Shown here in pieces: positions 14,864-35,590 of a stretch of DNA of 64,000 nucleotides. The stretch is from Sedimentisphaerales bacterium. Lineage in GTDB: Bacteria > Planctomycetota > Phycisphaerae > Sedimentisphaerales > Anaerobacaceae. Numbering within the stretch: the first letter of the stretch is position 1; the number at the start of each line of letters is the position of its first letter. The DNA lies in the NCBI GenBank assembly GCA_963708075.1, contig OY970194.1, positions 4,576,001 through 4,640,000 on the forward strand, in the 5' to 3' direction. The translations under genes were made by a program, and so were the position numbers. The notes under the pieces were generated by a model, which worked only from the letters and a program-made list of their open reading frames with translations, had not been told where the DNA came from and made no database searches.

Positions 14864-16230
14864 ATGAGACGAGCAGCAGTGAGTGTGGCAGCGGTGTTTC
14901 TGGGGATTCTTCTGGCGGGGGTTCCGCGCGGGCGCTGGGGCAGGAGCATGGCGACTTTCGCGAGATCATCACGCGGGCCAAGTCGGAGGTGTTTCCGGCG
15001 CTGATCTTCGTCAAGCCGATCGTCGAGGACTACGGCAGCGGCGAGAAGAAGCAGCAGGAGGTGTTCGGGTCGGGCGTAATCATCAGTCCCGACGGATACG
15101 CAGTGACGAATTGGCATGTTGTCGACAAGGCCGTTACGATCAATTGCGTCCTGTACGACAAGCAGCAGGTCAGAGCGGAGTTCATCGGGTCGGACCGCGA
15201 TACCGATCTGGCCCTGCTCAAGCTGCCCGCACGCGAGGGCGGCCAGGCTTATCCATGCGCGCGTCTGGCCGACTCGGCCGTGGTCCAGGAAGGCGATTTC
15301 GTCATGGCTTTGGGAAGTCCGTTCGGATTTCAGCGGTCCATCAGTTTGGGGATCGTTTCGAACGCGCAGCGATATATCGGCTTCACGACCGAATACAAGT
15401 ATAACACGTGGATTCAGACCGACGCGGCGATCAATCCGGGCAACAGCGGCGGGCCGCTGATCGATACGAAGGGAGCCATCGTCGGCATCAATACGCTCGG
15501 TGTCGAAGGCAGCGGGCTGGGGTTCAGCATCCCTGCGCCGACGGTGCGGGACACGGTCGAGCGGCTCAAACGCGACGGCAGAGTCATCCGGGCCTACACG
15601 GGACTGCTCCTGCAGGCGTTGAAAGACTTCCAGAGCAACACATTTGTCGCCGGCGAGCATGGCGTGCTGATCGCGGGAGTGGAGGAGAACAGCCCGGCGG
15701 CCCAGGCAGGCATCCGCGCGGGCAATATTCTGTTGAGTGTCGACGCGCAGCCCGTGGAGGGCCTGTATGCGGAGATGCTGCCGGACATCTGGCGGCGGCT
15801 GGCGGATTTGCCCGTCGGCAAGCCTGTGCCGATGGAACTGCTGCGCGGGGGCGAGACGGTCCGCGTCGAGGTCACGCCGGAAGAGAAGGGAAAGCTCGAA
15901 GGCGACGACTTCGATTGCCGCCGATGGAATATGACGGTGAAAGAGATCAACAAGTACCGCACGCCCCGCCTGTACTACTTCCGGCAGGCCGGCGTGTACG
16001 TGCAGGGCGTGAAGTACCCCGGCAACGCCGCCGCGGCGGGCCTGAGCGAGCAGGATATCATCCTGAGCATCGACAAGCAGGCCGTCGCGACTATCGAGGA
16101 CGTGAAGAAGATCTACGGCAAGCTGCTGGAGGACGCGCAGCGGGAGAAGAAAGTAGTGTTCGAGGTCATGCGAAGCGGGCTGCGAAAATGGATTGTGCTG
16201 GATTATCGCCGGGATTACGAAGAGGAATAA
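14864..16230 (+). CDS. HtrA/DegP-like serine protease with PDZ domains (signal peptide out of frame near 14925)
   Basis: GSGVII, VTNWHVV, DTDLALL, IQTDAAINPGNSGGPL. A signal peptide MRRAAVSVAAVFLGILLAG starts at 14864 in another frame. Confidence 0.9.
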
Positions 16231-16232
16231 CA

Positions 16233-18891
16233 ATGAAGACGTGGAAATATCGAGTGCCGGTTCTCGGCATCATTCAACCTTATTCATCCCACCAGGACAC
16301 TTCCGGGGCACAGAGCGGGTGGCATGGGCAAACTCGTTTGCCCGTGGAGCATAGCGAGGGCATCTCTTCGGCGAACTCAGGGCAGGCTTTGCCCTTGTCC
16401 TGCGGAGCCATGGTGGATCGACGCCTGATAAAGCGAGGCCAAGCTGGCCTTGCGACGCAAGGGCGGGACGCCCTCGCCACCATCCGGCCCAGTCGAGACA
16501 GCACCGTCAAACGAGTTTGGCGGTGCCACCCGCTGATTCTCGTGGTAGCGACGGTTGCGCTGTGGGCGGGTCTGAGCGGATCGACACTGCGGGCGGCCGA
16601 GCAGGACAAGGACGTGCCGTGGGAGAAGATCTATCAGAACACCCGGCAGAGCTTTGTAATCGTCAGCTATCATCTGAAGAAGAGCGACCGTCCCGGGCGG
16701 GAAGTTGGATACGCATACGACCGCGACTACGGCACGGTCCTGCAGCGAATCCTCAACAAGAACGCGACCGACGTTCTCGGCGTGATCGTCAGCGACAAGG
16801 GCGAGATCTTCACGTTTGACAGGGACCCGGTGTATATGGATACGGTGGCGAAGATCACCGTCGAGGGCCCGGACGGCACGGTCGTGCCCGCTGAATTCGA
16901 CCGGCTGCTGGTCAAGACCTCCGGCCGCATCCTGCGGCTTCCCGGCGGTCTGCCGGCGGGGTGGAAGGCCCTGCAGTTCGCCGAGGTCGGCGAGATCACT
17001 CCCCGCACGCTGCTGTACGCCGCGACGATGAGGCCGGACAAACAGAACCACGTGTCCATCCGGCCCTGCGAGTACGGTTGCAGTTGGAGGAGCGCCGAGC
17101 CGGGCCAATGCCTTCAAGCGCCCGGCCTCTACTGCATCGGTGTGATCTGCAATGCCGAAGGGATGCCCGTCGGCGTCACCAGCCGCGAGCAGATCGATCT
17201 GGGGTCCGCGGGCGCCGCGTGGAAGGGCAAGGACGTTCTGGCGGACGCGGGTCTGCCGCACGAGCAGCAGATACAGCTTGAAGAGAAATTGAAGCAGGAC
17301 TTCGCGGCCAACCTGTACGAGATCACGATCACGTTCCGGCCGGAGCCGCAGGAGGAAGAGGCGTACGACTTCGGCGGCAGAAGTCCGTTCGGCAGGTACC
17401 AGCGCGGGGGAGGCGAAGGCAATCGGGAGGCGCTCGTGTACGGTTCCGCGTATGCCGAGAACAGGCTGCTCATTCCGGACGCCCTGCCGCGGGAAGCGGT
17501 CGCCGGAATCGATACGATCGCGGTCAAGGTCGGCGATGAGTCGCTGGCCGCACGGTTCGGCGGAGTCCTCAAACAATGCAGCGCCACCGTGATCGAGCTC
17601 GAGGCGGGCAAGCTGCCGCACATCATGGATTTGTCGGCCGCCGCCAGGCTGACGCGGGTCGAGCCGTTCTGGGCGGTCTCCGTGCGCGAGCTCGGCGGGA
17701 TGGATGTGGAAGCGGAATTCAATCGCTGGATGGACGAGCGGCAAGGCTACGGCGATGAATGGTACCCGGCGATGGACCGGCCCCTGCAGACGGGCTGCTG
17801 GCTGCTGGACCACCAGGGAAGGCTGGTCGGTTCTCTACTGCCGGGCGAGACATGAGGAGGATCGGCTGGAGCCGTACCTGATAAGCCGGCAGTCCGGCCG
17901 CTACTCGCAGTATTCCATGCCCGCGTCGGCACGAATGGGCCGCGGCGTGGCGCCCGCGTGGGACCCCGGCTACAGCATAGACACCCGCCCCTTTGAAGCT
18001 GCTGAGCTGGCACGGTTGCTCAACAATCTGCCGGAGAACTCCGATCCGCTCATCCGCCACCTGAGCAAGGACGAGCAGAAGCGCCGGGTCTGGCTGGGCG
18101 TGGAGTACGTGTCGCCGGACAAGGAAATGGTCAAGCAGTTGGGCCTTCGCCAGCCGACCCGCGACGGACGCATCGGCTTGGTAGTCAATCGCGTCTACCC
18201 CGGCTCGCCCGCGGCAAAGCTCGGCCTCGTCGAGGGCGACGTGCTCCTGAACATCGCCGTGCCCGGGGCCCCGTGGCCGATCGAGCTGGCGTCCGACGAA
18301 CGCGGCGAATTCGAGATGCCCGACTTCGAAGAAGCGGACGTGCCGAAGGAATTCCAGGCAATGGGCATCCCGATTCCCCGCAAGCGGCCCTGGCCGAGCC
18401 AGGACAACTATCTGACCCGCATGCTCGCGGACATCGGCGCCGGAACGACCGTGACGCTCTGCTATCTGCACGACGGCCAGAAGAAGGAGCAGGAGTTCAC
18501 CATTGAGCAGGCCCCGAGGGACATGCTCAGCGCCACCAAATACAAGAATGAGAAGCTCGGCCTGACGGTCAAGGAACTGACGTACGAGGTGCGCGCGGCG
18601 CTGCGGCTGCAGGAGAATGACGCGGCCGTGGTCATCACCCAGGTCGAGCAGGGCACACCGGCCGCCCTGGCTCGCATCAACGGCTACGAGCTGATCCGGG
18701 CCATCGATGGCGAGCCCGTCGCCGGCGTCGAGGCGTTCGAGAAGCTGATCGCCGCCGCACAGCAGCAGAACAAGGAATCGGTGCGGCTCACCGTCGAATG
18801 GATGGGCAAGACGCGCCTGGCCGATCTGAAGTTCGAAGCCGCCCCCGCCGGCCCGGGCCTGCTCCGCTCCATCCTCGGCGGCCAGGAGTGA
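16233..18891 (+). CDS. Large secreted PDZ-domain protein with degenerate protease-like domains (frameshift near 17830)
   Basis: AGAGGA RBS before ATG 16233; ORF 15408..17855 joined to 17704..18891 (RVWLGVEY, VYPGSPAAKLGLVEGDVL, VEQGTPAALA). Confidence 0.7.
16315..16533. repeat. Nested palindromic repeats within the 5' part of the PDZ-protein frame
   Basis: Outer GCGGGTGGCA...TGCCACCCGC; middle GCGAGGGCATC..GCCCTTG / CAAGGGCGGGACGCCCTCGC; inner CTTCGGCGAACTCAGGGCAGGC. Confidence 0.75.
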
Positions 18892-23069: not shown

Positions 23070-23873
23070 GTGAGAGTGCTCGTAGCGATTGCCATCAGCA
23101 CTATCTTCGCGTCACTCGCGCCCGGCGAAGTCTTCGTGACAGCATATCGCTGTGACGGCACGACGCCTTTGACCCTCAAAGATCCCAATGCCCCTTATGT
23201 GTACTCGGATATCATGGTCGGCACGAAGCTGGTTCTGATTGTAAGCTCCGACGAGTCCCGCACGAGAGACCCTTGGTGGGGTGCTTTGCTGTCCACGTGG
23301 GACAATTGGGAACGCGGTAAGCTGGCGGGCAGGGGATACGCCGCGCGCGATGCGGCGAGCGATGCGGGGATCGTTAAGGTCTGGAACTACTGGGATTCGT
23401 GCCTTCCCGCCGCCGGCAGCCACCCGCTCGCGACTCTTGTCGAATACCCTGAATTTGATCTCAACAGGGTCGGTTTTGATCTGACGACATACCCCGACGC
23501 CCTCGCAGGTGACTGGTTTGTCCTCGACTACGTCGCGGAGAAGGTTGGCTCGTCCCAGGTAGAGTGGTTCGACTATGCCCTGAGTTTCGACGTGCCGAAA
23601 GAGACGCTCTCCTTTACCCACGTTCCCTCGCGGGATTTCCAGGGCAACGGCATCGTCGATTTCGCTGATTTTGCCTCGCTGGCCTCCCGCTGGCGACAGC
23701 CGGTTGACCCCAATGCCGATCCGGCATCCCCGCACGATCTTGACGCGGACCACCTTATCGGCCCCTCCGATCTGGTGCTGTTCAGCGGATTCTGGCTTGA
23801 CCGAACAGACTGCGCCGCTCCGGCAGAGCCTAACGCTGCCCCGGCAGAGCCTAATACCCCTGCCGGACTTTGA
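23070..23873 (+). CDS. Secreted protein with C-terminal dockerin/EF-hand-like pair
   Basis: GTG start after AAGGAGG; signal peptide; DFQGNGIVDFADFASLASRW and DLDADHLIGPSDLVLFSGFW. Confidence 0.7.
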   Translation: MRVLVAIAISTIFASLAPGEVFVTAYRCDGTTPLTLKDPNAPYVYSDIMVGTKLVLIVSSDESRTRDPWWGALLSTWDNWERGKLAGRGYAARDAASDAGIVKVWNYWDSCLPAAGSHPLATLVEYPEFDLNRVGFDLTTYPDALAGDWFVLDYVAEKVGSSQVEWFDYALSFDVPKETLSFTHVPSRDFQGNGIVDFADFASLASRWRQPVDPNADPASPHDLDADHLIGPSDLVLFSGFWLDRTDCAAPAEPNAAPAEPNTPAGL

Positions 23874-24060
23874 GCTCGAGGATTCAACGTCCTCTTTCAT
23901 ATAGCGCAGCAAGAAAATCTGACAAAATTCCCAGATAGGCATCCACATTTCTGCACTCTCAGCCGCCATTGCATTGGCTAGTTCTATGATCAGGTAGACT
24001 CGAGTGGCGTCTTTGCCGATAAGTAGTCCCTGCCAAGATACGTGACTACAAAGGAGGAGT

Positions 24061-25850
24061 ATGATGAAAGCGCGATTTTTGTTGCCAGTGGTTGTCCTGT
24101 CGTTGTCCCTGACCGCCGTAGCATCGGGCCAGCGGACCCTTCAATCCGATGAGATTCTCCAGGTTTTCCACAAACTGACCAGCCAGCCTCGCAATACCTG
24201 GATTCCCGCAGGCACGATCGAGGCTACGCACCGTGAGCAGCGAGAGCCGAAGATCACGGACTCCACGGTCCTCCGCGATGAGATCGACAGGCGAGTCAAG
24301 GAGTACAAGGACAAGCCCAACAAGATCGAATTGACGGACGAGTTGCAGAAGATGAAGCTCGACGCCATCCCGTTCAACGTGCGTTTCAAGCTCGCCAACA
24401 AGCACACGATGGACTCCACGGTGGTCGTAAAGTGCGATGGGGAAAGGTTCTACTGGGAGACCAATGTGGATTCTCGCCAGGATTCCGTAATGCCCGATTG
24501 GAGCCTGGCGGGCAACTTCATGACGGAGCAGTTCGACCTGCCTTTCAACCGAAAGAGTGTCTTTGCATGGGACGGCGATGAATACGTCACCTACACGGTT
24601 AGCGGCATGTTCGCCACCGTGGATGCCGCGGGCCGGCTGCCGCGTGCGGTCAACGGACCGCTGACGGCGGGCATAGTTCCCTGGGGTTATGGCCGATTCA
24701 CCTATAACAATCTCCTTCTCGCCGACGCTTCGGCAATGGAGTTGGCCTTGAACGGCGAGAGCCTGATCCTGATGTCTCTCGACTGGGCCGATGGCTCGTC
24801 GGCGAGCCTCACTCTCGATCCCTCCAAGGACTACGCCGTGATCGCCTGCACCCTTCCAGCGGGCAGAGAACCAGGTGTCCGTCAATGACTATGGGGATTA
24901 TCGCCTGGTGGGCAGCTACTGGGTCCCGGGGACCATCTTCATGGAGCGTCGCGATGCAATCACAGGCAAGCTGCTGGGCTCGGACCAGTGGACCCTGGTC
25001 ACTGTCGACGGCACGGTTCCTCCTCCCGGCAGCTTCACCGTTGAGTACGAGCCAAACGCATTTATCCAGTATTTCTCGAACTTGACCACAGAACCGACTA
25101 CGTTCCTTTACTCGAGTTCGATGGACATGCGCCGGCTTCTGGCGGATCGGCTCGCCTACATCGCCTCCGAGGGCAAGCAGCCGCAGAATTGTGCCACTGC
25201 GGCCGTCGGCTACGTAGCGTCCCGACTGGGCAAGACCGTGCCGGACGGCACGCTGGCGACCCTCGTCAAGTCCGGCGGACAAACCACCCTGTCCAGCATG
25301 AAACAAGCTGTCGAAGGCCTCGGCCTGTATTGCAGGGCTATCCAGGCCGATCTGGCAAGCCTGCAGGACCTCGGATCCGCCAAAACGATCCTACACCTGC
25401 CGGCAGAGAACCATTTCGTCGTCCTCGATTCGATCGACAATGGGCGCGTCCAGATCGTCGATCTGTCCGACAGCAAGTTCTGCTATAGCGACACCGTCGA
25501 TTCCTTCAAGCAGCGGTGGTTCTCAGGGACCGGCTTTGCTGGTTTCCTCCACGCCGATCGCCGGGTCTTATGCGAAGGTCGATGACGCAGGTCTTACAAC
25601 GGTTCTCGGTGGTTGGGGCTGGGCCTGCACCAAGCTCCTACAAAGTGAACACTACTATCTCTGCGATCCACCCTGCTGCGGCTACTTCACATGGTACTGG
25701 GGGAGATATGGCTGCCAGACAGCCGAGAGCGGCACATGCTCCAACCAGGTACTCGTTCGATTCCAGGAAATGGCCTGTGTTTTCGATTTCTATCAAGACT
25801 GCGTGGGGGATGGGCGCTGGTACTTTTATAACATGCTTGCCTGCAAGTGA
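24061..25850 (+). CDS. Secreted C39-family cysteine peptidase fusion with a GG-preceded Cys-rich tail (two apparent frameshifts)
   Basis: AAGGAGG RBS and signal peptide; ORFs 24061..24888, 24875..25585 and 25440..25850 overlap in series; QNCATAA, LHLPAENHFVVL, QIVDLS; tail VDDAGLTTVLGG-WGWAC... Confidence 0.7.
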
Positions 25851-25897: not shown

Positions 25898-26695
25898 ATG
25901 AAAGGTACCGGCCTCACACTTGTCGAGTTGCTTGTCGTGCTTTCGATTACCGCCTTCCTGGCGGCCCTGCTGCTCCCCGCCTTCCACAAGTCGCGGGAGC
26001 AGGCGAAGGCCACGACCTGTGAGGCCCGCGTACGGCAACTGGCCTTCGCGCTGCATGCCTATGAAGGGGACAACCTGTCGTTTCCTTATGGATTTGGCGG
26101 CCCCCGCAAGGTGCCTCCACCGGGCGGCTACCCGGGCAGCGCGCTAATCGATCCCCTGGGATGGTGGTGGTTCAACTATATCGGCGCAGTCCACTACAGG
26201 ACGGCCAGGGATAAGGACGCGCTGCGGTGTCCATCCAAACGACTCGAGGATGCAGCGCTGCAGCGGGACATCCTCTGCGGCAACTACGGGGTGAACCGCG
26301 CCATCTGCAAAAGCGCCAGCAGCAGTAAGCCTGACAGCGAGTTCGAGGGGATTCCTCTATCCATAGGCGCCATCCGTCACCCGGCATTGACCTTGCTCGT
26401 CATGGATAGCGGGTACGGCCTGATCTGCTGGTGGCATGCGACAGAGGCCCCCCCGGTCACATTCGGCAGCACGATCCAGGACACCGCCTATGTTCCCGGC
26501 CTGGAGATCAACAAGCTCAAGGCACTCTGGCCCGGACAGGCTCGCGACGCCATTGACGACGGCCGGCATCTCAACAAAACGGTCAACATTGCCTTTGCAG
26601 ATTCTCACGTGGAACGAAGGAGGGCCCACGACCTGCTCGTGGAGAAAACGGACGAAGGCGGCTGGGACTACAGTCCTCTATGGTCGTCCGAGTGA
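25898..26695 (+). CDS. Prepilin-type N-terminal cleavage/methylation protein (DUF1559 / H-X9-DG-like)
   Basis: GLTLVELLVVLSITAFLAALLLP; LRCPS; RHLNKTVNIAFADSHVE. Confidence 0.85.
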   Translation: MKGTGLTLVELLVVLSITAFLAALLLPAFHKSREQAKATTCEARVRQLAFALHAYEGDNLSFPYGFGGPRKVPPPGGYPGSALIDPLGWWWFNYIGAVHYRTARDKDALRCPSKRLEDAALQRDILCGNYGVNRAICKSASSSKPDSEFEGIPLSIGAIRHPALTLLVMDSGYGLICWWHATEAPPVTFGSTIQDTAYVPGLEINKLKALWPGQARDAIDDGRHLNKTVNIAFADSHVERRRAHDLLVEKTDEGGWDYSPLWSSE

Positions 26696-28377
26696 TTCTG
26701 CGATTCAGGGAAGAGACGTTGGATATCGAGCTCCACCTCCTGCCGGGTCGGATACTCGAATCTGTACGTGTCCATCAATTGCCATTGCTCTTCGCCCGGC
26801 ATCAACCGGGACGATTCCATCCTTTGGGGTAATCCACTGTCAGGATCGAGGAAGGCTTTCAGCCTCTTCTGCATCACGAGGCCATTGGAGGCCTTGCTGT
26901 CCCAGGTGTATTCATGGGCCGCCTCGCCCTGCCCAATGCCTTCGGCAGCATCAAGCGCCAGAGGCTGCAACCTTCCATCCCTGGGAGTGTCGCCCAGCGC
27001 TCGTCCCAGAGTAGCATTGATGGCCTTCATTATGCTCGTGTGTTCATCCTGCGTCAGCAGGGCTCGCTCGGGTGTCCCCCGGCCCGAGAGACGGACTATT
27101 ATCTCGCGGCTTGTGAAATCACAGAGCGTGTCACCCCGCGCGTCTCTCAGCGCCACTAGTCCTGAGCCACGCGCCATCAACAACTCTTCCACCAGTGTCC
27201 CATCGGGCCCATACCGCGTCAGATGAAGGTTTTCGATGCCCATGATGGTGTCGGAGAGTTGTTGCACTCTGACAGCGGATGCGGGCTGGATATTGACGAA
27301 CAGGGCAATGGCCAGGGGAATCATCGCCGCGGCCAACAGCCCGGCTTTCAGGACCGGCCTGAATTGCGGGCTCCCCAGCCTTCGGCCCAGCGCCTCGCGG
27401 ACCCCGGCGATCGGCAGAAGCCGCGTCGTGGCCGGCTCCGGCTCGCGATGGGCCACTTCCACGTGGATCGGATACGCGCTGTAGAGGCTCTCCTCCACCT
27501 CTGGGCCGCCCTTTACGGCCTCGCTGCCGGTCGTATAGACGGTGGAGACGCCGGAATCGACCCGCTCGGCCACGCCGTAGATTGTGCGATGCAGCACCTG
27601 CATCCGTTCGATGCATTCGGGGCAGGCCTGAAGATGGGAAGGCATGGCCTCGTCGCCGTCACAGACGTGTTCATGGTTGCCGTCGGTCCGGCCGTACGGC
27701 ACCACCCACTCGAATAGATCGGCCGTCGAGATCCCGCTGCAAAGGCCGACGCCCGGGATCGTGTCTCCGGGTTGCCGGCCGGCCAGGATCTTCTCGCGAC
27801 ACCGGTGGACCCGCCTGCGGCACCGTGGGCAGGCACACATGTGGTCCAGTATTTTCGCGTCGATGCCGTCAAAGGAGGCACAGGCAAAGGCCCAGGTCTT
27901 CGATCTCGCCCGCCGGCAGATCTGCGGGTCGCCGCCGGAGACTGCCGCATACAGTCGGCTCAGCCGCGCCAATTGCTCGGGCCGAAGCTCCAGCTCGCGG
28001 ATCACCTCCAGGTCCCCGGTGCACCGCCGGCAATGATCCACATGAACGGTAATGGGCGTGGGAATCCGGATCTCTAACGAAGGCACTAGCAGCGCGGGAA
28101 GGAAGGATTTGGCCTTTGCGCACGTGATATCCTCGCCGAGATGAGCGAAGTGAAGGCTTAACGCCCCGACGACATCCGTGCCGCCCTCAGGCGTGCGATC
28201 CTGGGCCTCGGACTCAGCAATGGCAGCCTCCAATTGCCGAATCTGCGTCCGACAGTGGGCACACTGCCGGATGTGGTCGGCCACGGCTCGCGGAATATCC
28301 GCATCGAGGCCACATAGATAATCGTAATAATGTGGCTCGGCGTCCGTGCAAAACATGCTTTGGCCAAAGGTGACCAT
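26668..28377 (-). CDS. Putative membrane-anchored anti-sigma factor with four HxxxCxxC motifs
   Basis: HIRQCAHC, HVDHCRRC, HMCACPRC, HLQACPEC; single TM (LLAAAMIPLAIALFV); directly downstream of the ECF sigma gene. Confidence 0.7.
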   Translation of the reverse strand: MVTFGQSMFCTDAEPHYYDYLCGLDADIPRAVADHIRQCAHCRTQIRQLEAAIAESEAQDRTPEGGTDVVGALSLHFAHLGEDITCAKAKSFLPALLVPSLEIRIPTPITVHVDHCRRCTGDLEVIRELELRPEQLARLSRLYAAVSGGDPQICRRARSKTWAFACASFDGIDAKILDHMCACPRCRRRVHRCREKILAGRQPGDTIPGVGLCSGISTADLFEWVVPYGRTDGNHEHVCDGDEAMPSHLQACPECIERMQVLHRTIYGVAERVDSGVSTVYTTGSEAVKGGPEVEESLYSAYPIHVEVAHREPEPATTRLLPIAGVREALGRRLGSPQFRPVLKAGLLAAAMIPLAIALFVNIQPASAVRVQQLSDTIMGIENLHLTRYGPDGTLVEELLMARGSGLVALRDARGDTLCDFTSREIIVRLSGRGTPERALLTQDEHTSIMKAINATLGRALGDTPRDGRLQPLALDAAEGIGQGEAAHEYTWDSKASNGLVMQKRLKAFLDPDSGLPQRMESSRLMPGEEQWQLMDTYRFEYPTRQEVELDIQRLFPESQNHSDDHRGL

Positions 28378-28387
28378 TTACACTCCC

Positions 28388-28966
28388 TCACTCAACCGCC
28401 AATTTCCTCCTGAGCTCTCTCAGGCCCGACGTCAGATAGCGGCTGACGCTTCGCCTGTCGATGCCGATCTCAGCCGCGATCTCCGCAATACTATAATTGT
28501 CCCGATACCGCAGAGTCATGACTTGCGCTTCCCTTCGTCGTAACTTTCCGATCAAGCACGCGAATACGGAACTCTTCTCTTCCGTTTCCTCTGATATGGC
28601 GTCTTGTGAGGGGTCATTGTAGATAACAATCTGGCTTCTTTCCGCATATTTTTTCAAATGGCGATGTTCCTGTTCCTGCTCTCGCACCACATCGACGGCG
28701 TCACGGAGGATCGTCCGATATAGGTACCCTCTGATGTTCTGCACATCGGCCGGCACGGGTCGATCGACAAGCGTCAGGAACAGTCCCTGGAACAGGTCCT
28801 CCCGGCGTGACGCGTCACGGACGCGCAGGCGGATGAGGTTACGGATGAAACTGCCGTGCTCGGCGAAGATCTTGACCGCCGCTGCCACGGCCTCCCCCTG
28901 GTGTTCGGTGCTTATGCCATACTCTCTCACAGGTGCCCACTCCAACTCCCTTCCACGCTCTGACAA
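28388..28966 (-). CDS. ECF-type sigma-70 factor
   Basis: Region 2 EDLFQGLFL..GYLYRTILRDAVD; region 4 LRRREAQVMTLRY..SIAEIAAEIGI..SVSRYL. Confidence 0.85.
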   Translation of the reverse strand: MSERGRELEWAPVREYGISTEHQGEAVAAAVKIFAEHGSFIRNLIRLRVRDASRREDLFQGLFLTLVDRPVPADVQNIRGYLYRTILRDAVDVVREQEQEHRHLKKYAERSQIVIYNDPSQDAISEETEEKSSVFACLIGKLRRREAQVMTLRYRDNYSIAEIAAEIGIDRRSVSRYLTSGLRELRRKLAVE

Positions 28967-29317
28967 TCACCGACGCAGATCGTCGAAGAGATACATACAC
29001 CGGGTCACGACCACAGTTATTATAGCCCCTGGCCAAACATTGTCAATCGAATTCGAGGCCGGTGCTGCCTTAAACTGGGCAAAATACACAGTTTACATCA
29101 GGCAACCAGTCCACGCGAAATCCTGCGCCACGACGTTGATGGCACGCCCTGGGATCGACACAAAGGAATTGTCGGTTCTTTTTGAGAATTGCATCCACAT
29201 TTTGTGTCTGCCGGTCGCTTGATCGTGTAATTGAACGCAGCGAGGGAGTATGTGCGACGCAGCGGAAAGCCAGGCCGGCGTGCTTGGAGCGATTCAGCCT
29301 CCCTGGTTGGCAACCGG

Positions 29318-29813: not shown

Positions 29814-30429
29814 TCACACGAGCTTTCGCAATCTCCAACCGGCGGCAGCCAAGCCAAGTATGCCCAAAATGACTCCCCCCTGCAACGGCACAGCCGAAAC
29901 GTGAAACGAGTCAGTGAGGCTCGGGGGATCGGTCAAACCCGTGTTCATGCGAACATCGAAACCTACCATTGTCAGAGATGCCTCAGCCAAAAAGGGCAAC
30001 TCCAGCCACGCGGATTCACCGGCTGCGATTGACACCCAGTCATCATCATCAGGTGTCACAGCATTCGTAACCAGGCGAACTTCCCATGTGCTTTGATTGT
30101 CATTTGCAAGGAAGGCACCGAAGCGATCATAAGTCCCAGTCCCGAAACTACCTGTCGTTCCAATTCGCATCCAGCTCAAATCGCCGCTGAGAACCGCCCA
30201 CAAAACCGACCTCGCCTTGCATTGCCGCTGGATATTCGGTGGCCGCATACACGGGGCTTTGGTATTCCCATCCAGTACCATTGAAGACGCCCATCAACAG
30301 CCCGGAACTGCCGTCGGCAGGGAGCTGAAGAAAATCCAACGCTGTTGCATAGTCGAGGGTATACATCCCGGCAGACGCTGACCCGGCAAGCAGACAAATC
30401 ATCAAGACTGACAGTAAGACCCGTTTCAT
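29814..30429 (-). CDS. Secreted protein with PEP-CTERM-like (VPLxx) sorting signal (frameshift near 30195)
   Basis: Signal peptide MKRVLLSVLMICLLAGSASA (ORF 30148..30429) joined to ORF 29814..30281 ending VPLQGGVILGILGLAAAGWRLRKLV. Confidence 0.75.
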
Positions 30430-30478: not shown

Positions 30479-31111
30479 TCACACGAACTTCCGCCACTGC
30501 AGACCCGTCACGCCCAAGCCAAGCATGCCGAGCAGGACAGCCGCCGGCACAGGAACCACGCTCACCTGCACCATGTCCAGTGTCGGCCCGTAGGAGCCCA
30601 ACATCGTTGACATGAACTGCAGGGTCGTCGCATCAGCGTCAGCGGTGAATGTCCATTCGCAAGGCGTCCATCCCATATTCGTAACGGAGTAACCGGTCGT
30701 AACGAAACTGAACGACATGCTCTGCGTGGTATTCCCTATTGCAGAGACATCCATCGTCTTCGTCGCAAGCCCGCCACCCGGATTACCCGCCATATAGAAT
30801 TCGACGAGGTAGGTGGCTCCCGAGATGGTGCTGATAACCTGTTCTACGCCCCCGGGACCCGGGTTGCCGTTCAGGTCCAGAGTGCGCTGGCCGTCGGCAG
30901 TCTGCCAGTATCCGCAAATGTAGTCTACGGCTTTAGTTCCGCCGATGACCGTCCAGTCATCAATGTCCGAGCTATCAGGGCCAAGTGTGTGGATATGCCC
31001 GGGCACCATGCTGACACCTTGCTCAAAGCTGCCGTTCAGCACCAGATCTGCCCGCACCGGCACCGCGATAAACACACACAGAACCGCAATTGACGTGAAC
31101 CTATTCATCAT
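30479..31111 (-). CDS. Choice-of-anchor C/DUF642-like protein with PEP-CTERM-like sorting signal
   Basis: DLVLNGSFE..WQTADGQRTLDLNG..; C-terminus VPVPAAVLLGMLGLGVTGLQWRKFV. Confidence 0.85.
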   Translation of the reverse strand: MMNRFTSIAVLCVFIAVPVRADLVLNGSFEQGVSMVPGHIHTLGPDSSDIDDWTVIGGTKAVDYICGYWQTADGQRTLDLNGNPGPGGVEQVISTISGATYLVEFYMAGNPGGGLATKTMDVSAIGNTTQSMSFSFVTTGYSVTNMGWTPCEWTFTADADATTLQFMSTMLGSYGPTLDMVQVSVVPVPAAVLLGMLGLGVTGLQWRKFV

Positions 31112-32030: not shown

Positions 32031-32381
32031 CCTCGCCAAACGAACACGAGGCCGAAGCCAGTCGGGACCGTCGTGCGATGCACCCGTGTGCTGGGTCACC
32101 CGGCAAAGGATCGACGCCCGGCGAAGAACATCGCGCAACGGCGCACCGAAGTCGGCAAAAGCGAATCATGAAGACACGGGCCAGGGACGCCGGCCATCGG
32201 AGATTGTGCTTAGCAATCTACTGAAAGGACCCGCTTTAATTCCTTAATGCCGGGCCGCTGGAGTCCTTGCGGCGAGACTCCCATGATATAGAATAGGGTC
32301 AGGCGGCCTCAACTGTACTCCCGATGGAGTGCATCCGTTGAGTGCCGTGGGAAGCACCGATCAATGTCATGGGGGACAATC

Positions 32382-33890
32382 ATGCCAGCGAAGAAGGTCA
32401 CAGCCGACGAGAAGAACGACATCCAACTAGTGAAGACGGGTATCGCCGGGCTGGATGACATCCTGCGCGGCGGTCTGAGCCCGGGCGGACTCTACCTGAT
32501 TGAGGGCACATCGGGCACAGGGAAAACGACCCTGGGCCTGCAGTTCGCCCTGACGGGTGCGTCCCAGGGCGAGTCCGTGGTGTATGTAACGCTGTCGGAG
32601 ACCCAAAGAGATCTGGAGTCGGTCGCGCGCTCGCACGGCTGGGATGTGGAGAAGGTCCACATCATGCAGGCTCTGGCGCCGCAGGCGAAGGCAGCCACGA
32701 TGTTCTATCCCTCCGAAGTGGAGCTTGAGGAGCTGATGACGCGCTTGAAAGAGGAGATCCGGCGGATCGCACCGGCGCGGATCGTCATCGACTCTCTCTC
32801 GGAGATCCGCCTGATGGCGGAGGGTCCGCTGCGGTATCGCCGGGAAATGATGGGGCTCAAGCAGTTCCTTGCCTTCGGCCGAAGCACGGTCCTGCTCCTG
32901 GAGGAGTCCACCGCCGAAAGCAGCCTGCGTACGTTCGCCGATGGCGTGATCCTGCTGGAGCAGTTGGCTCCCGAGTACGGGTCGGAACGCCGACGACTGT
33001 GGATCGTCAAGGCCAGGGGCAGGACGTATGTCGGCGGGTTTCATGACTTCGTGATCCGAAAGGAGGGACTGGAAGTCTTTCCGCGCCTTGTGGCGGCGGA
33101 GCATCGCGAGGAGCCGCACAAGCTCGAAGTGCTGCCGAGCGGCATTGCCTCGTTGGACGCCCTGCTCGGCGGCGGCCTCATGACGGGGTCAAGCACGCTG
33201 CTCGTGGGTCCGGCCGGCACGGGCAAATCCTCTATCGCCATGCAGTTCGCCGTCAGCGCTGCCGAGCGAGGCGGGAACGCGGCGGTATTCACCTTCGATG
33301 AGCGCCCGGAGACGGCGATCGCACGGGCCTCGGGGCTGCATATGAGTGTCCAGGTGCATATGGATGACGGCCGGCTCCGCATTCAGCAGTTGGACCCGGC
33401 GGAGCTCACTGCGGGCCAGTTCGCTCACATCGTCCGCGCGGAAGTGGAATCTCATAACGTGAGCGTCCTGGTGATCGACAGTCTCAACGGCTACCTGCAG
33501 GCCATGCCGGATCAGCGGTTCCTGCTCGCCCAGATGCATGAATTGCTGATGTACCTCGGCCAGCGGGGCGTCGCCACGTTCTTCGTCATGGGGCAATCCG
33601 GTGTCGTCGGCGATACTCTGTCGCCGGCAGACGCCAGCTATCTCACGGACAACATGCTCCTGTTCCGTTTCTTCGAGGCCCAGGGCGAGGTTCGCAAGGC
33701 GATCTCGGTCGTCAAGAAACGAGGGGGCTCCCATGAGATCGCCATCCGCGAACTAAAGTTCGGGCCTGAGGGTATAACGGTTGGTGAAGCGTTGCGCCAG
33801 TTCCAGGGAATCCTGACCGGCGTGCTAATCTTCACGGGGGCTCCCAACCAGTTGATGCAGGCAAAGGATGGCACAGGCCAAGGAAAGTAA
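32382..33890 (+). CDS. KaiC-like double RecA-domain ATPase
   Basis: Two Walker A motifs (GTSGTGKT, GPAGTGKS), IVIDS/LVIDS, ISVVKKRG. Confidence 0.9.
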   Translation: MPAKKVTADEKNDIQLVKTGIAGLDDILRGGLSPGGLYLIEGTSGTGKTTLGLQFALTGASQGESVVYVTLSETQRDLESVARSHGWDVEKVHIMQALAPQAKAATMFYPSEVELEELMTRLKEEIRRIAPARIVIDSLSEIRLMAEGPLRYRREMMGLKQFLAFGRSTVLLLEESTAESSLRTFADGVILLEQLAPEYGSERRRLWIVKARGRTYVGGFHDFVIRKEGLEVFPRLVAAEHREEPHKLEVLPSGIASLDALLGGGLMTGSSTLLVGPAGTGKSSIAMQFAVSAAERGGNAAVFTFDERPETAIARASGLHMSVQVHMDDGRLRIQQLDPAELTAGQFAHIVRAEVESHNVSVLVIDSLNGYLQAMPDQRFLLAQMHELLMYLGQRGVATFFVMGQSGVVGDTLSPADASYLTDNMLLFRFFEAQGEVRKAISVVKKRGGSHEIAIRELKFGPEGITVGEALRQFQGILTGVLIFTGAPNQLMQAKDGTGQGK

Positions 33891-35590
33891 GAAGAATAGA
33901 CCAGCCCATCGCGTGTTGATGTACGCGCAGACCACGGAAGATATTTCGATTCTCCAGGATATCCTGGCCGGGATTGGGGCCGAGGGGGTGGTCTGTACCG
34001 ACTTTGGGGACCTGTGCCGGCAAACGGCTCAGGATGTGGATGCGGTATTATTGACTGAACAATCGATTGTGGATGGAGCATTGCCGATCCTGGCCGAAGC
34101 GCTGCAAGGTCAGCCGGAGTGGTCGGACCTGCCTGTCCTGTTCGTCGCGGCCGGCGGGGCCGAATCCCCCCTGGCGGTGCAGGCGATGCAGGAACTCCGC
34201 AATGTGGTCATCCTCGACCGGCCCGTACGCATCGCGACGCTCGCCAGCGTCCTGCGGATGGCATCGCGGGTGAGAGACAAGCAGCGTCAGGTTCGCGATC
34301 TTCTGCAAGAGCGAGAACCGGCAAGAGCAGCGCCTGCGGCGGTTGACGGAGCTGTTGGAAGAAGACGTCAAGGCGAAGACGGAGACACTGACGGGCACGA
34401 TAGACCGGCTGCATGACGAGGTGGCCGGTCGCACGCTGGCGGAAGGGAGACTCTACAAAAGCTCGCAGATGCTCGAGGCGTTCTTTGAGCATACGATCAG
34501 CCCCCTGGTGTTCATGGATCGAAACTTCAACTTCGTACGGGTCAACAAGGCCTACGCCAGAGTCCATGAAAAGAGCCCTGAGTACTTCGTCGGCAAGAAC
34601 CTTTTCGCCCTGTATCCAAGCTTGGAGGATCAGGCGATTTTCGAGGAGGTCATGCGGACCCGGCAGCCGTACCGGGCCTATGCCAAGCCTTTCGCTTTTC
34701 CCGATGCCCCCCAACCGGACGTAACCTACTGGAACTGGTGGCTCACGCCTTTGCTGAATAACCTTGGCGAGGTGCAACTCCTTGTGCTGAACCTGGAAGA
34801 CGTGACCGAGCGGCAGGAAGCTTTCTTCGAGCTGCAGGAGCGGACGCTCCAGCTTCAGCAACTGACATTGGAGCTATCGCAGACGGAGGACCGCGAGCGC
34901 AAGCATCTGGCGGAGATCCTGCACGACGACCTGCAGCAATTGCTCGCGGCGGCCAAGTTCCACGTCGGCCTCCTGAGCCGTCGCGCCAGGGGCGACGAAG
35001 AGTTGCTGGAGATGGTCGGGCAGGTCAAGGCGATGCTCGTGGAGGCCATCGAGAAATCCCGCAGCCTGTCGCATGAACTCAGTCCGCCCGGGCTCTCCAA
35101 GAGCGATCTCCATGAAACCTTCGAATGGCTCGCGCAGCAGTTCCAGACGAAGCACGGCCTGACGGTCTTTCTGGATGCCTGTGAGGGGATCGAACTGCCA
35201 TCGGAGCCGCTCAGGGCCATTCTCTACAAGGCGGCCCAGGAGATGCTGTTCAATGTGGTCAAGCACGCCGGGGTCACGGAGGCAACACTGCGGCTGCGGC
35301 GCCGGGGCGGATATATCTGCCTGTCCGTGTCCGACAGGGGCCGGGGATTCAATCCGGAAGAACCCGGCCGTACCGGCGGGTTCGGGCTCCTGAGCATCCG
35401 GGAACGAGTCAAGCTGCTCGGCGGCCGTATGAAGATCAGGAGCGCCAAAGGTAAAGGGAGCACGTTCCTCATCATCGTTCCGGATTCCCAGCCGCAAATG
35501 ACCCAGCCCAAGAACATCACCATTCAGAGTGTTCCTCGCCACGATCCGTGGGCCGAAAGCGGACGATATTCAGCGGCGGGCGCGCCATAA
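33868..35590 (+). CDS. Receiver-like + PAS + HisKA_3 (NarX/UhpB-type) sensor histidine kinase (frameshift near 34320)
   Basis: ERKHLAEILHDDLQQ, EMLFNVVKHA, SDRGRGF, GFGLLSIRER; N-terminal QPEWSDLPV..LDRPV module. Confidence 0.85.

Follow-up and report, generated by a model that had tools for sequence, protein, structure and literature searches.

A double-glycine leader followed by a disulfide-rich peptide is the pattern of class II bacteriocins, and in the minor pilin-cargo pairs of type IVb pili (CofB-CofJ, TcpB-TcpF) a dedicated pilin-like partner binds a secreted protein. FapD and FilB, the latter being the NCBIfam "putative pilus system C39 family peptidase" and compared here by family name alone, are exported C39 proteases linked to fiber biogenesis. 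In the PCAT/AMS systems (PCAT1, ComA, LahT), the leader is N-terminal on a separate cytoplasmic precursor; the available sections of two reports describe LahT and PCAT1 as recognizing leader positions -12, -7, and -4 plus two small residues (PMC6363468, PMC6959990). The accessible part of a review of RiPP leader proteases covers only PCAT-type enzymes and one engineered C39 fusion (PMC10885120). Outside this setting, FapD of the Pseudomonas amyloid is presented, in the portion of its report consulted, as a periplasmic C39 protease that needs its Cys (PMC5557850), and the StbD-CT C39 toxin, according to the preprint text at hand, cleaves itself after Gly-Gly in a strictly cis reaction (bioRxiv 10.64898/2026.05.07.723447). 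Precedent thus exists separately for periplasmic C39 activity (FapD) and for Gly-Gly cleavage in cis (StbD-CT).

Here, we analyzed a planctomycete gene in a stretch of 64,000 nucleotides (the whole stretch is called the window below) whose product combines a Sec signal peptide, a LolA-like domain, a C39 peptidase, an internal double-glycine-type leader, and an 8-Cys core. Its peptidase has the same fold as the PCAT/AMS peptidase domains (Z 13.8 to 13.9, rmsd 2.5) and a Cys-His-Asp triad with the same His-Asp spacing, and the leader determinants at -12, -7, -4, -2, and -1 are common to both. Unlike PCAT/AMS proteins, it carries a Sec signal and no membrane or ATPase domain, its leader lies C-terminal to the protease on the same chain, the oxyanion Gln is missing, and the I59 position is Lys; each enzyme would have one substrate if it acts in cis. 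FapD and FilB, in contrast, are stand-alone proteases with unknown or separate substrates and have no fused leader, cargo, or LolA-like domain. In StbD-CT, as far as the preprint text at hand goes, the cleavage site precedes the protease in the chain, no leader helix is described, and the released part is the protease itself, acting in the target cytoplasm, whereas here a cargo is predicted to be released. The type IVb pairs lack protease, leader, and holder domain and are cited here as an analogy. By profile, fold, and triad, the protein is a C39 family member, and it is not a PCAT system, FapD, or FilB. The fused protease-leader-cargo architecture and its gene module had no description in the literature searched, which included the supplement of the ECF reclassification paper (PMC7826278) but not subscription journals or bioRxiv supplements.

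Results

Gene integrity and start codon

The gene and its parts are as follows.
24051 to 24059, plus strand: Shine-Dalgarno sequence (from the sequence).
24064 to 25850, plus strand: single 594-aa gene with signal peptide, LolA-like domain, C39 peptidase, double-glycine-type leader, and 8-Cys core (tblastn of intact homologues, contigs without the extra bases).
24064 to 24129, plus strand: Sec-type signal peptide with basic start, hydrophobic stretch, and small-residue end, without a lipobox Cys (sequence reading and homologue N-termini).
24130 to 25099, plus strand: LolA-like beta domain with a helical insertion, approximately residues 24 to 345, probable holder of the core (Foldseek, VIA, covariation with the core).
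25121 to 25550, plus strand: C39 peptidase domain, with Cys at 25190-25192, His at 25412-25414, and Asp at 25460-25462 (Pfam PF03412, VIA, conservation).
25575 to 25613, plus strand: double-glycine-type leader, positions -13 to -1, with V-12, L-7, V-4, G-2, and G-1 (column counts, model helix 507-511, determinants in PMC6363468 and PMC6959990).
25614 to 25847, plus strand: 78-aa all-beta core with 8 conserved Cys and a near-invariant Gln, predicted cargo (model pLDDT 91.9, conservation).
24865 to 24870, plus strand: assembly error 1, one extra base (missing in X1, X2, and X4 contigs).
25520 to 25531, plus strand: assembly error 2, one extra base (missing in X1 and X4 contigs).

The preliminary description had joined three overlapping ORFs into one exported protein of ~595 aa, and these ORFs almost certainly do encode a single protein. 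Three intact 594-aa homologues (69 to 90% identity) tile 24064-24864, 24866-25528, and 25533-25847 in frames +1, +2, and +3 by tblastn, and the middle ORF used as query retrieved 90 longer proteins among 2,654 candidates, most of them 590 to 610 aa long. Contigs of run X1, otherwise letter-identical in the bridging pieces, have one base fewer at ~24869 and one fewer at ~25520; the first extra base is also absent from X2 and X4 contigs, and a diverged X4 contig has one base fewer at 25523, all of this evidence on the extra bases coming from single contigs at depth 2 to 5. Run X1 may represent the source population of the assembly. Given the intact homologues and the near-identical short-read contigs without both extra bases, both frame breaks in the window copy are assembly errors. 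The frameshift at 25531, whose reality would have left the Cys-rich tail untranslated, is thus not real, and the tail is translated. The two frame breaks could still suggest a pseudogene, or a joined protein that is an artefact, but this is exceedingly improbable and already largely refuted by the contigs, by homologues intact in the hundreds, and by the 14 of 109 test genes of this assembly (one 7.5-Mb contig) that likewise span more than one frame, the C39 gene included.

The single protein therefore stood, but its start shifts: since homologues begin with MKARF and the Shine-Dalgarno spacing is better, translation probably starts at the second ATG (24064), giving 594 aa. The Sec-type signal peptide read in the window copy and in homologue N-termini is consistent with the proposed export. 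The QNC Cys codon at 25190-25192, the GG at 25608-25613, and the 78-aa tail with 9 Cys and 18 Trp/Tyr/Phe all lie where they had been placed. Residues are numbered below as in homologue P0002 (LolA-like domain ~24-345, C39 353-497, leader 504-516, core 517-594), and the AlphaFold2 model built with 82 sequences reached pLDDT 88 and pTM 0.84; confidence was low at residues 1-3, 516-519, and 554-556.

LolA-like and C39 domains

The N-terminal domain resembles LolA3 (Foldseek E 2.6e-7) and LolA-type folds in general (VIA Z 10 to 12.3, rmsd 5.3 to 5.6 over ~200 residues), although the relationship to LolA is distant, a Pfam search with the first ORF giving no match. It shares the fold of LolA, LolB, and DUF1329-like proteins at just 7 to 12% identity and rmsd ~5, and its apparent partner is a disulfide-rich domain, whereas that of LolA is a lipoprotein acyl chain. 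A subfamily of 545 to 580 aa (family f7 members and P0106-P0190) is devoid of the helical insertion (~residues 60-110). Free LolA-like look-alikes of 290 to 390 aa also occur in Planctomycetota (Atlas rows for P0002 24-345), one cluster of them being fused to an AhpC/TSA thioredoxin-like domain, which hints at a link to disulfide handling.

The C39 domain matches PF03412 (E 6e-13, 49.2 bits against a cut-off of 22), and residues 353-497 superpose on the PCAT1 peptidase with Z 13.9 and rmsd 2.5 over 128 aligned residues. Conservation counts refer to the rows that reach across the C-terminal part, 569 out of 626 distinct ones; some rows are shared among sources, and the effective number of sequences is ~395. 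In this set, the catalytic-looking residues pointed out earlier prove to be a conserved Cys-His-Asp triad (C376 in 566, H450 in 568, and D466 in 560 of 569 rows, with Asn in 9 more). The oxyanion Gln at -6 from the Cys is absent (Gly in 331, Ser in 52, and others), and a near-invariant Asn occupies -1 instead; the available text on LahT puts the corresponding Gln 4.3 Å away (PMC6363468). In a profile alignment to PCAT1, A55 and G135 map to the conserved L409 and G488, I59 maps to K413, and Q15 maps to a variable Gly. FapD and FilB profiles gave weak matches (14 to 21 bits against NCBIfam cut-offs of 330 and 475), and the protein was rejected as an equivalog of either, these scores being far below the cut-offs. 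The protein has no fused ABC membrane or ATPase domain, and its C39 domain is the sole C39 match in the entire assembly; the lack of a PCAT transporter, first noticed in the window, thus extends to the whole assembly. One 804-aa homologue (P0164) has a duplicated C39, the second copy apparently without the catalytic Cys and followed by a leader and a degenerate core.

Leader and core

The leader first noticed in the window copy is conserved among homologues. Of the 569 rows, 565 have Ile, Leu, Val, Met, or Phe at -12, 464 have Leu at -7, 446 have Ile at -4, 556 have Gly at -2, and 526 have Gly, Ala, or Ser at -1. Among 82 distant representatives, entropy is lowest at -12, -4, and -2 and the intervening positions are variable, the dip at -7 being smaller (hydrophobic in 47 of 82). 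A strict form of the pattern, which occurs at 1.5e-4 per position in the long ORFs of this genome, was found in 88 of 166 homologues 4 to 14 residues before the first core Cys, and a loose form (0.6% per position in the same background) in 140 of 166. The leader motif is not due to chance. The distance that separates G-2 from the first core Cys is variable, usually 5 to 11, insertions accumulate directly after the predicted cleavage site, and 56 of the 569 rows are non-canonical at -2 or -1 (T, Q, L, R, M, D, E), with the triad intact in 55 of these. The AlphaFold2 model has a helix at -10 to -6 (507-511) and two-residue strands at 407-408 and -3/-2, with low confidence at 516-519, from which we infer that strand 407-408 would pair with leader positions -3/-2. 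A complex prediction of C39 (352-497) with the leader peptide (498-530) scored 0.01, which counts neither for nor against docking, and leader-C39 couplings are ambiguous and too weak to position the leader, the best of them (475-505, 479-507, and 473-513, z 3.0 to 4.7) pointing toward the beta5-beta6 hairpin and not the canonical groove. From the sequence pattern, it is likely that the leader gets cut at the predicted site.

The conserved Cys scaffold expected of the tail is present, but with only 8 of the 9 Cys conserved, each in 561 to 569 of 569 rows; Q526 is kept in 562. Folded alone, the core is a confident all-beta domain (pLDDT 91.9) whose best structural match has Z 3.1 among 48,161 chains. 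Foldseek gave no match at E 0.001, the Atlas gave nothing usable, and phmmer with a C-terminal fragment against PDB gave 0 matches. The cores of 157 homologues span 77 to 95 aa with a median net charge of -4, and their mean identity (0.43) is close to that of the second half of the N-terminal domain (0.42). The picture of a variable, freely released tail did not survive: the core is conserved, acidic, and covaries with the LolA-like domain and with a DUF1559 neighbor (see below). A search for stand-alone cores yielded 4 matches among 125 candidates, all rejected, three being clear C-terminal pieces of the C39-core family with a leader and one starting inside the core.

Distribution and split forms

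In one Phycisphaerae order, 166 of 301 genomes have a match to the core profile, as do 122 of the 189 high-quality ones; the matches are mostly single-copy and nearly always lie within a frame of 550 to 680 aa. Across the phylum, the profile matched 8 of 401 genomes, namely, this one, six of the same order, and one with a weak match containing stops. This genome has one such place, and a pattern search revealed no separate ORF in it with signal, leader, and Cys-rich part. None of the 7 genomes searched in the order's family f8, several of which are complete, gave a match, and the module may be missing there.

The C39 alignment gave 13 matches in 8 of 151 phylum genomes, and 11 loci outside the order were examined. 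Five look like ABC-fused peptidases by length and N-terminus, while all six remaining non-ABC loci, in three genomes (G132, G177, and four in G282), have a separate ORF with a signal peptide, a leader-like segment, and a Cys-rich part. These cargo ORFs hold 8 to 50 Cys, and their leaders end in a clear I/V-x-G-G in four cases and fit partially in two. The oxyanion Gln is likewise missing from the split-form C39s, two of which end directly behind the last strand. In one locus (L325), a homologue of the LolA-like domain occurs as a free protein (E 1e-25), and in another (L332:5895-7514, G177) the C39 domain shares its chain with a prepilin motif and DUF1559. Since these split forms carry leader and cargo on a separate exported protein, the leader travels with the cargo and not with the protease fold, which supports its being a real tag. 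The C39-DUF1559 fusion lies just behind a precursor with signal, GG leader, and 8 Cys and before a DUF1573 gene. At L324:11368-12225 (G132), a 285-aa exported precursor with a GG leader and 50 Cys lies upstream of a second ORF very rich in Cys and of genes for TPR proteins and a stand-alone C39.

Conserved gene module and putative promoter

The gene belongs to a five-gene module that was absent from the preliminary description; its other members and control elements are as follows (counts from 80 loci, only those with enough flank being counted).
23070 to 23873, plus strand: secreted protein with C-terminal dockerin-like repeat, module member (46 of 61 loci).
23942 to 23967, plus strand: conserved ECF-like promoter motif (TCAACAT-like, 15 nt, CGCY) ~120 nt before the C39 gene (motif analysis; putative function).
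25898 to 26695, plus strand: DUF1559 prepilin-like protein, probably cotranscribed, candidate core partner (Pfam PF07596 and PF07963).
26668 to 28377, minus strand: anti-sigma-like protein with Cys-rich N-terminal part, hydrophobic segment, and C-terminal domain (52 of 56 loci; weak anti-sigma matches, E 8e-4 and 0.017).
28388 to 28966, minus strand: ECF sigma factor (TIGR02937 E 6e-19; 48 of 53 loci).
29019 to 29046, minus strand: sigma-70 promoter in front of the ECF sigma gene, in perfect agreement with the consensus (12 of 12 matches).

The DUF1559 gene adjoins the core gene in 62 of 68 loci and in 72 of 80 further regions. The dockerin-like product matches NF041540 weakly in two homologues and not in the window copy. 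A WYL regulator occurs in 23 of 55 loci with enough flank; in 29 of 80 loci (L033-L112), an HTH-WYL-WCX regulator lies on one side or the other of the module, and none was found beside it here. Clustering of module ORFs of at least 90 aa revealed no recurrent small immunity-like gene. The genome as a whole has 86 DUF1559 profile matches and 15 secretin, 32 GspF/PilC-domain, and 3 prepilin-peptidase matches.

TCAACAT-N15-CGCY lies ~100 to 135 nt upstream of the C39 gene, its seed being found in 39 of 53 upstream regions. A matrix of this motif scored at least 12 in 64 of 81 C39 ORF regions (training sites included), compared with 1 of 72, 0 of 59, 0 of 55, and 0 of 51 for other module genes, 8 of 29 for WYL genes, and 114 of 3,240 random windows. 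It is plausibly the promoter of the linked ECF sigma factor; a genome scan with the matrix gave 14 sites scoring at least 15 and no clear regulon.

Covariation of the core

Mean-field DCA on 545 rows revealed strong covariation between the core and the LolA-like domain (335-547, z 9.6; 176-567, 8.6; 155-568, 6.4; 178-587, 6.1; 205-548, 4.9), the first two pairs ranking 8 and 10 overall in the protein and 335-547 being Glu-Arg in 457 of 543 rows. Upon nearest-neighbor re-pairing, the five couplings dropped to 1.2 to 3.6 (335-547 to 1.2, 176-567 to 3.2). These couplings make it very likely that the core binds its own LolA-like domain.

Covariation of the core with the adjacent DUF1559 protein is moderate. 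In 120 pairs, the top couplings reached z 10.8, 9.6, 9.3, and 9.2 against a shuffled maximum of 7.2, and in 188 pairs z 10.4, 9.2, 8.5, 8.3, and 7.6, clustered on both partners (core 543, 578, 580, 541, and 546 with DUF columns 76, 89-95, and 150). They fell to 3.0 or less on three nearest-neighbor re-pairings used as a phylogeny control, and the top z was 9.9 in the core window against 5.8 to 6.6 in four further windows of 78 columns taken from the same protein. With a thinned set of 69, z did not exceed 3.3, and DCA on 61 hold-out pairs alone gave no signal (z 1.7 or less). The sole replication in the hold-out was an acid-acid exclusion at core 543 and DUF column 76 (1 case in 126 old pairs, 0 in 61 new ones; p 6.5e-7 and 0.008, kin not being independent). 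As the positive control at 120 pairs, core against own LolA domain, missed its true contacts, detection power at this depth is uneven. Covariation of the core with the dockerin-like protein (41 pairs) and with the anti-sigma protein (44 pairs, low power) did not exceed shuffles. On this basis, we lean toward the core binding the adjacent DUF1559 protein.

Discussion

We propose that the gene encodes a self-maturing cargo-delivery protein, a reading that as a whole we hold at slightly under an even chance. After Sec export, the core would form its four disulfides in the periplasm and, as the covariation supports, would fold against its own LolA-like domain, which would hold it. The C39 domain would then bind the tethered leader via -12, -7, and -4 and cut after G-[G/A/S], most probably a single time and in cis. 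The matured core would bind the cognate DUF1559 prepilin-like protein encoded next door, a step for which support is moderate, and would thereby become the cargo, or part of the tip, of a type II secretion or type IV pilus-like fiber. The linked ECF sigma/anti-sigma pair would control the two-gene operon via the conserved promoter. This suggests a hitherto undescribed route by which cargo may be loaded onto pilin-like proteins. However, an oxidizing compartment may act as a brake on the catalytic Cys, which counts against the cleavage reading; StbD, in the preprint text at hand, needs reductant (bioRxiv 10.64898/2026.05.07.723447). The missing oxyanion Gln, the Lys at the I59 position, the non-canonical sites, and the direction of the best leader couplings also speak against the proposal, although the split-form C39s are without this Gln too and that of LahT is 4.3 Å distant.

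Among the alternatives, the most serious, although unlikely, is that the leader stays uncut in vivo as a tether or pseudo-substrate, so that the core would be a permanent third domain docking the protein on DUF1559 while the protease has a different envelope protein as its target or is autoinhibited; the leader would then possibly stand in for a missing first strand of the C39 fold. The non-canonical sites in 56 of 569 rows with an intact triad, the strongest leader couplings pointing to the beta5-beta6 hairpin, and the Trp at P1' of the window copy would fit such a tether, as would the whole-protein pTM of 0.84 together with the core-LolA couplings, which are compatible with a compact three-domain protein. 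Yet in related stand-alone C39s the chain terminates just behind the last strand and the leaders are found on separate proteins, so the C39 fold needs no leader extension; G-2 and a small -1 are kept in ~90% of rows, insertions pile up just past the site, and LahT, in the available part of its report, tolerates diverse P' residues (PMC6363468).

Two other readings also let the core leave the chain. It is quite improbable that the cut-off core signals to the linked anti-sigma protein, with positive feedback via the ECF promoter in a quorum-sensing-like manner: the linkage of anti-sigma (52 of 56) and ECF sigma (48 of 53 loci) and the position of the promoter motif before C39 genes (64 of 81 regions, training sites included, against 0 to 1 of 51 to 72 for other module genes) agree with it, whereas core-anti-sigma coupling was not above the shuffled level (44 pairs, low power) and the clear couplings go to the LolA-like domain and DUF1559. 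Release of the core as a bacteriocin or other antimicrobial peptide is more improbable still. A double-glycine leader before a disulfide-rich peptide is indeed the class II arrangement, but this core is acidic, without hypervariability, mostly one copy per genome across an order, and coupled to two proteins of its own module, with no recurring small immunity-like gene among module ORFs of at least 90 aa and no ABC exporter with C39 found in the genome.

If self-maturation of a cargo-delivery protein is correct, the C39/double-glycine pair would here operate outside the cytoplasm and independently of an ABC exporter, and a single chain would unite enzyme, tag, holder, and cargo. More importantly, the core would be a first concrete binding partner for a DUF1559 protein, a member of a family of unknown function that is the largest paralogue group in Planctopirus limnophila according to the part of the report available (68 copies, two essential; PMC10632474). 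A self-cleaving, export-compatible module freeing a folded disulfide-rich domain could possibly be a useful tool. More broadly, and with more doubt than for this locus, it is possible that a planctomycete-wide, ABC-independent pathway exists in which disulfide-rich cargos are freed of their double-glycine tags by periplasmic C39s, held by LolA-like domains, and carried or displayed by cognate DUF1559 pseudopilins, the present gene being its one-gene form; in that case, the DUF1559 paralogues would serve type II secretion or type IV pilus machines as cargo-specific adaptors.

The window holds other features besides this module. On the minus strand, two tandem PEP-CTERM-like exported proteins lie at 29814-30429 and 30479-31111, the first apparently frameshift-split into 30148-30429 and 29814-30281 and the second with DUF642. 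On the plus strand, 14989-18891 encodes an HtrA-like trypsin/PDZ protease and, behind it, a long PDZ-bearing protein that a frameshift near 17700-17850 apparently splits, and 32364-35590 encodes a KaiC-like ATPase followed by a PAS histidine kinase region whose overlapping ORFs (33868-34416 and 34343-35590) are probably frameshifted.
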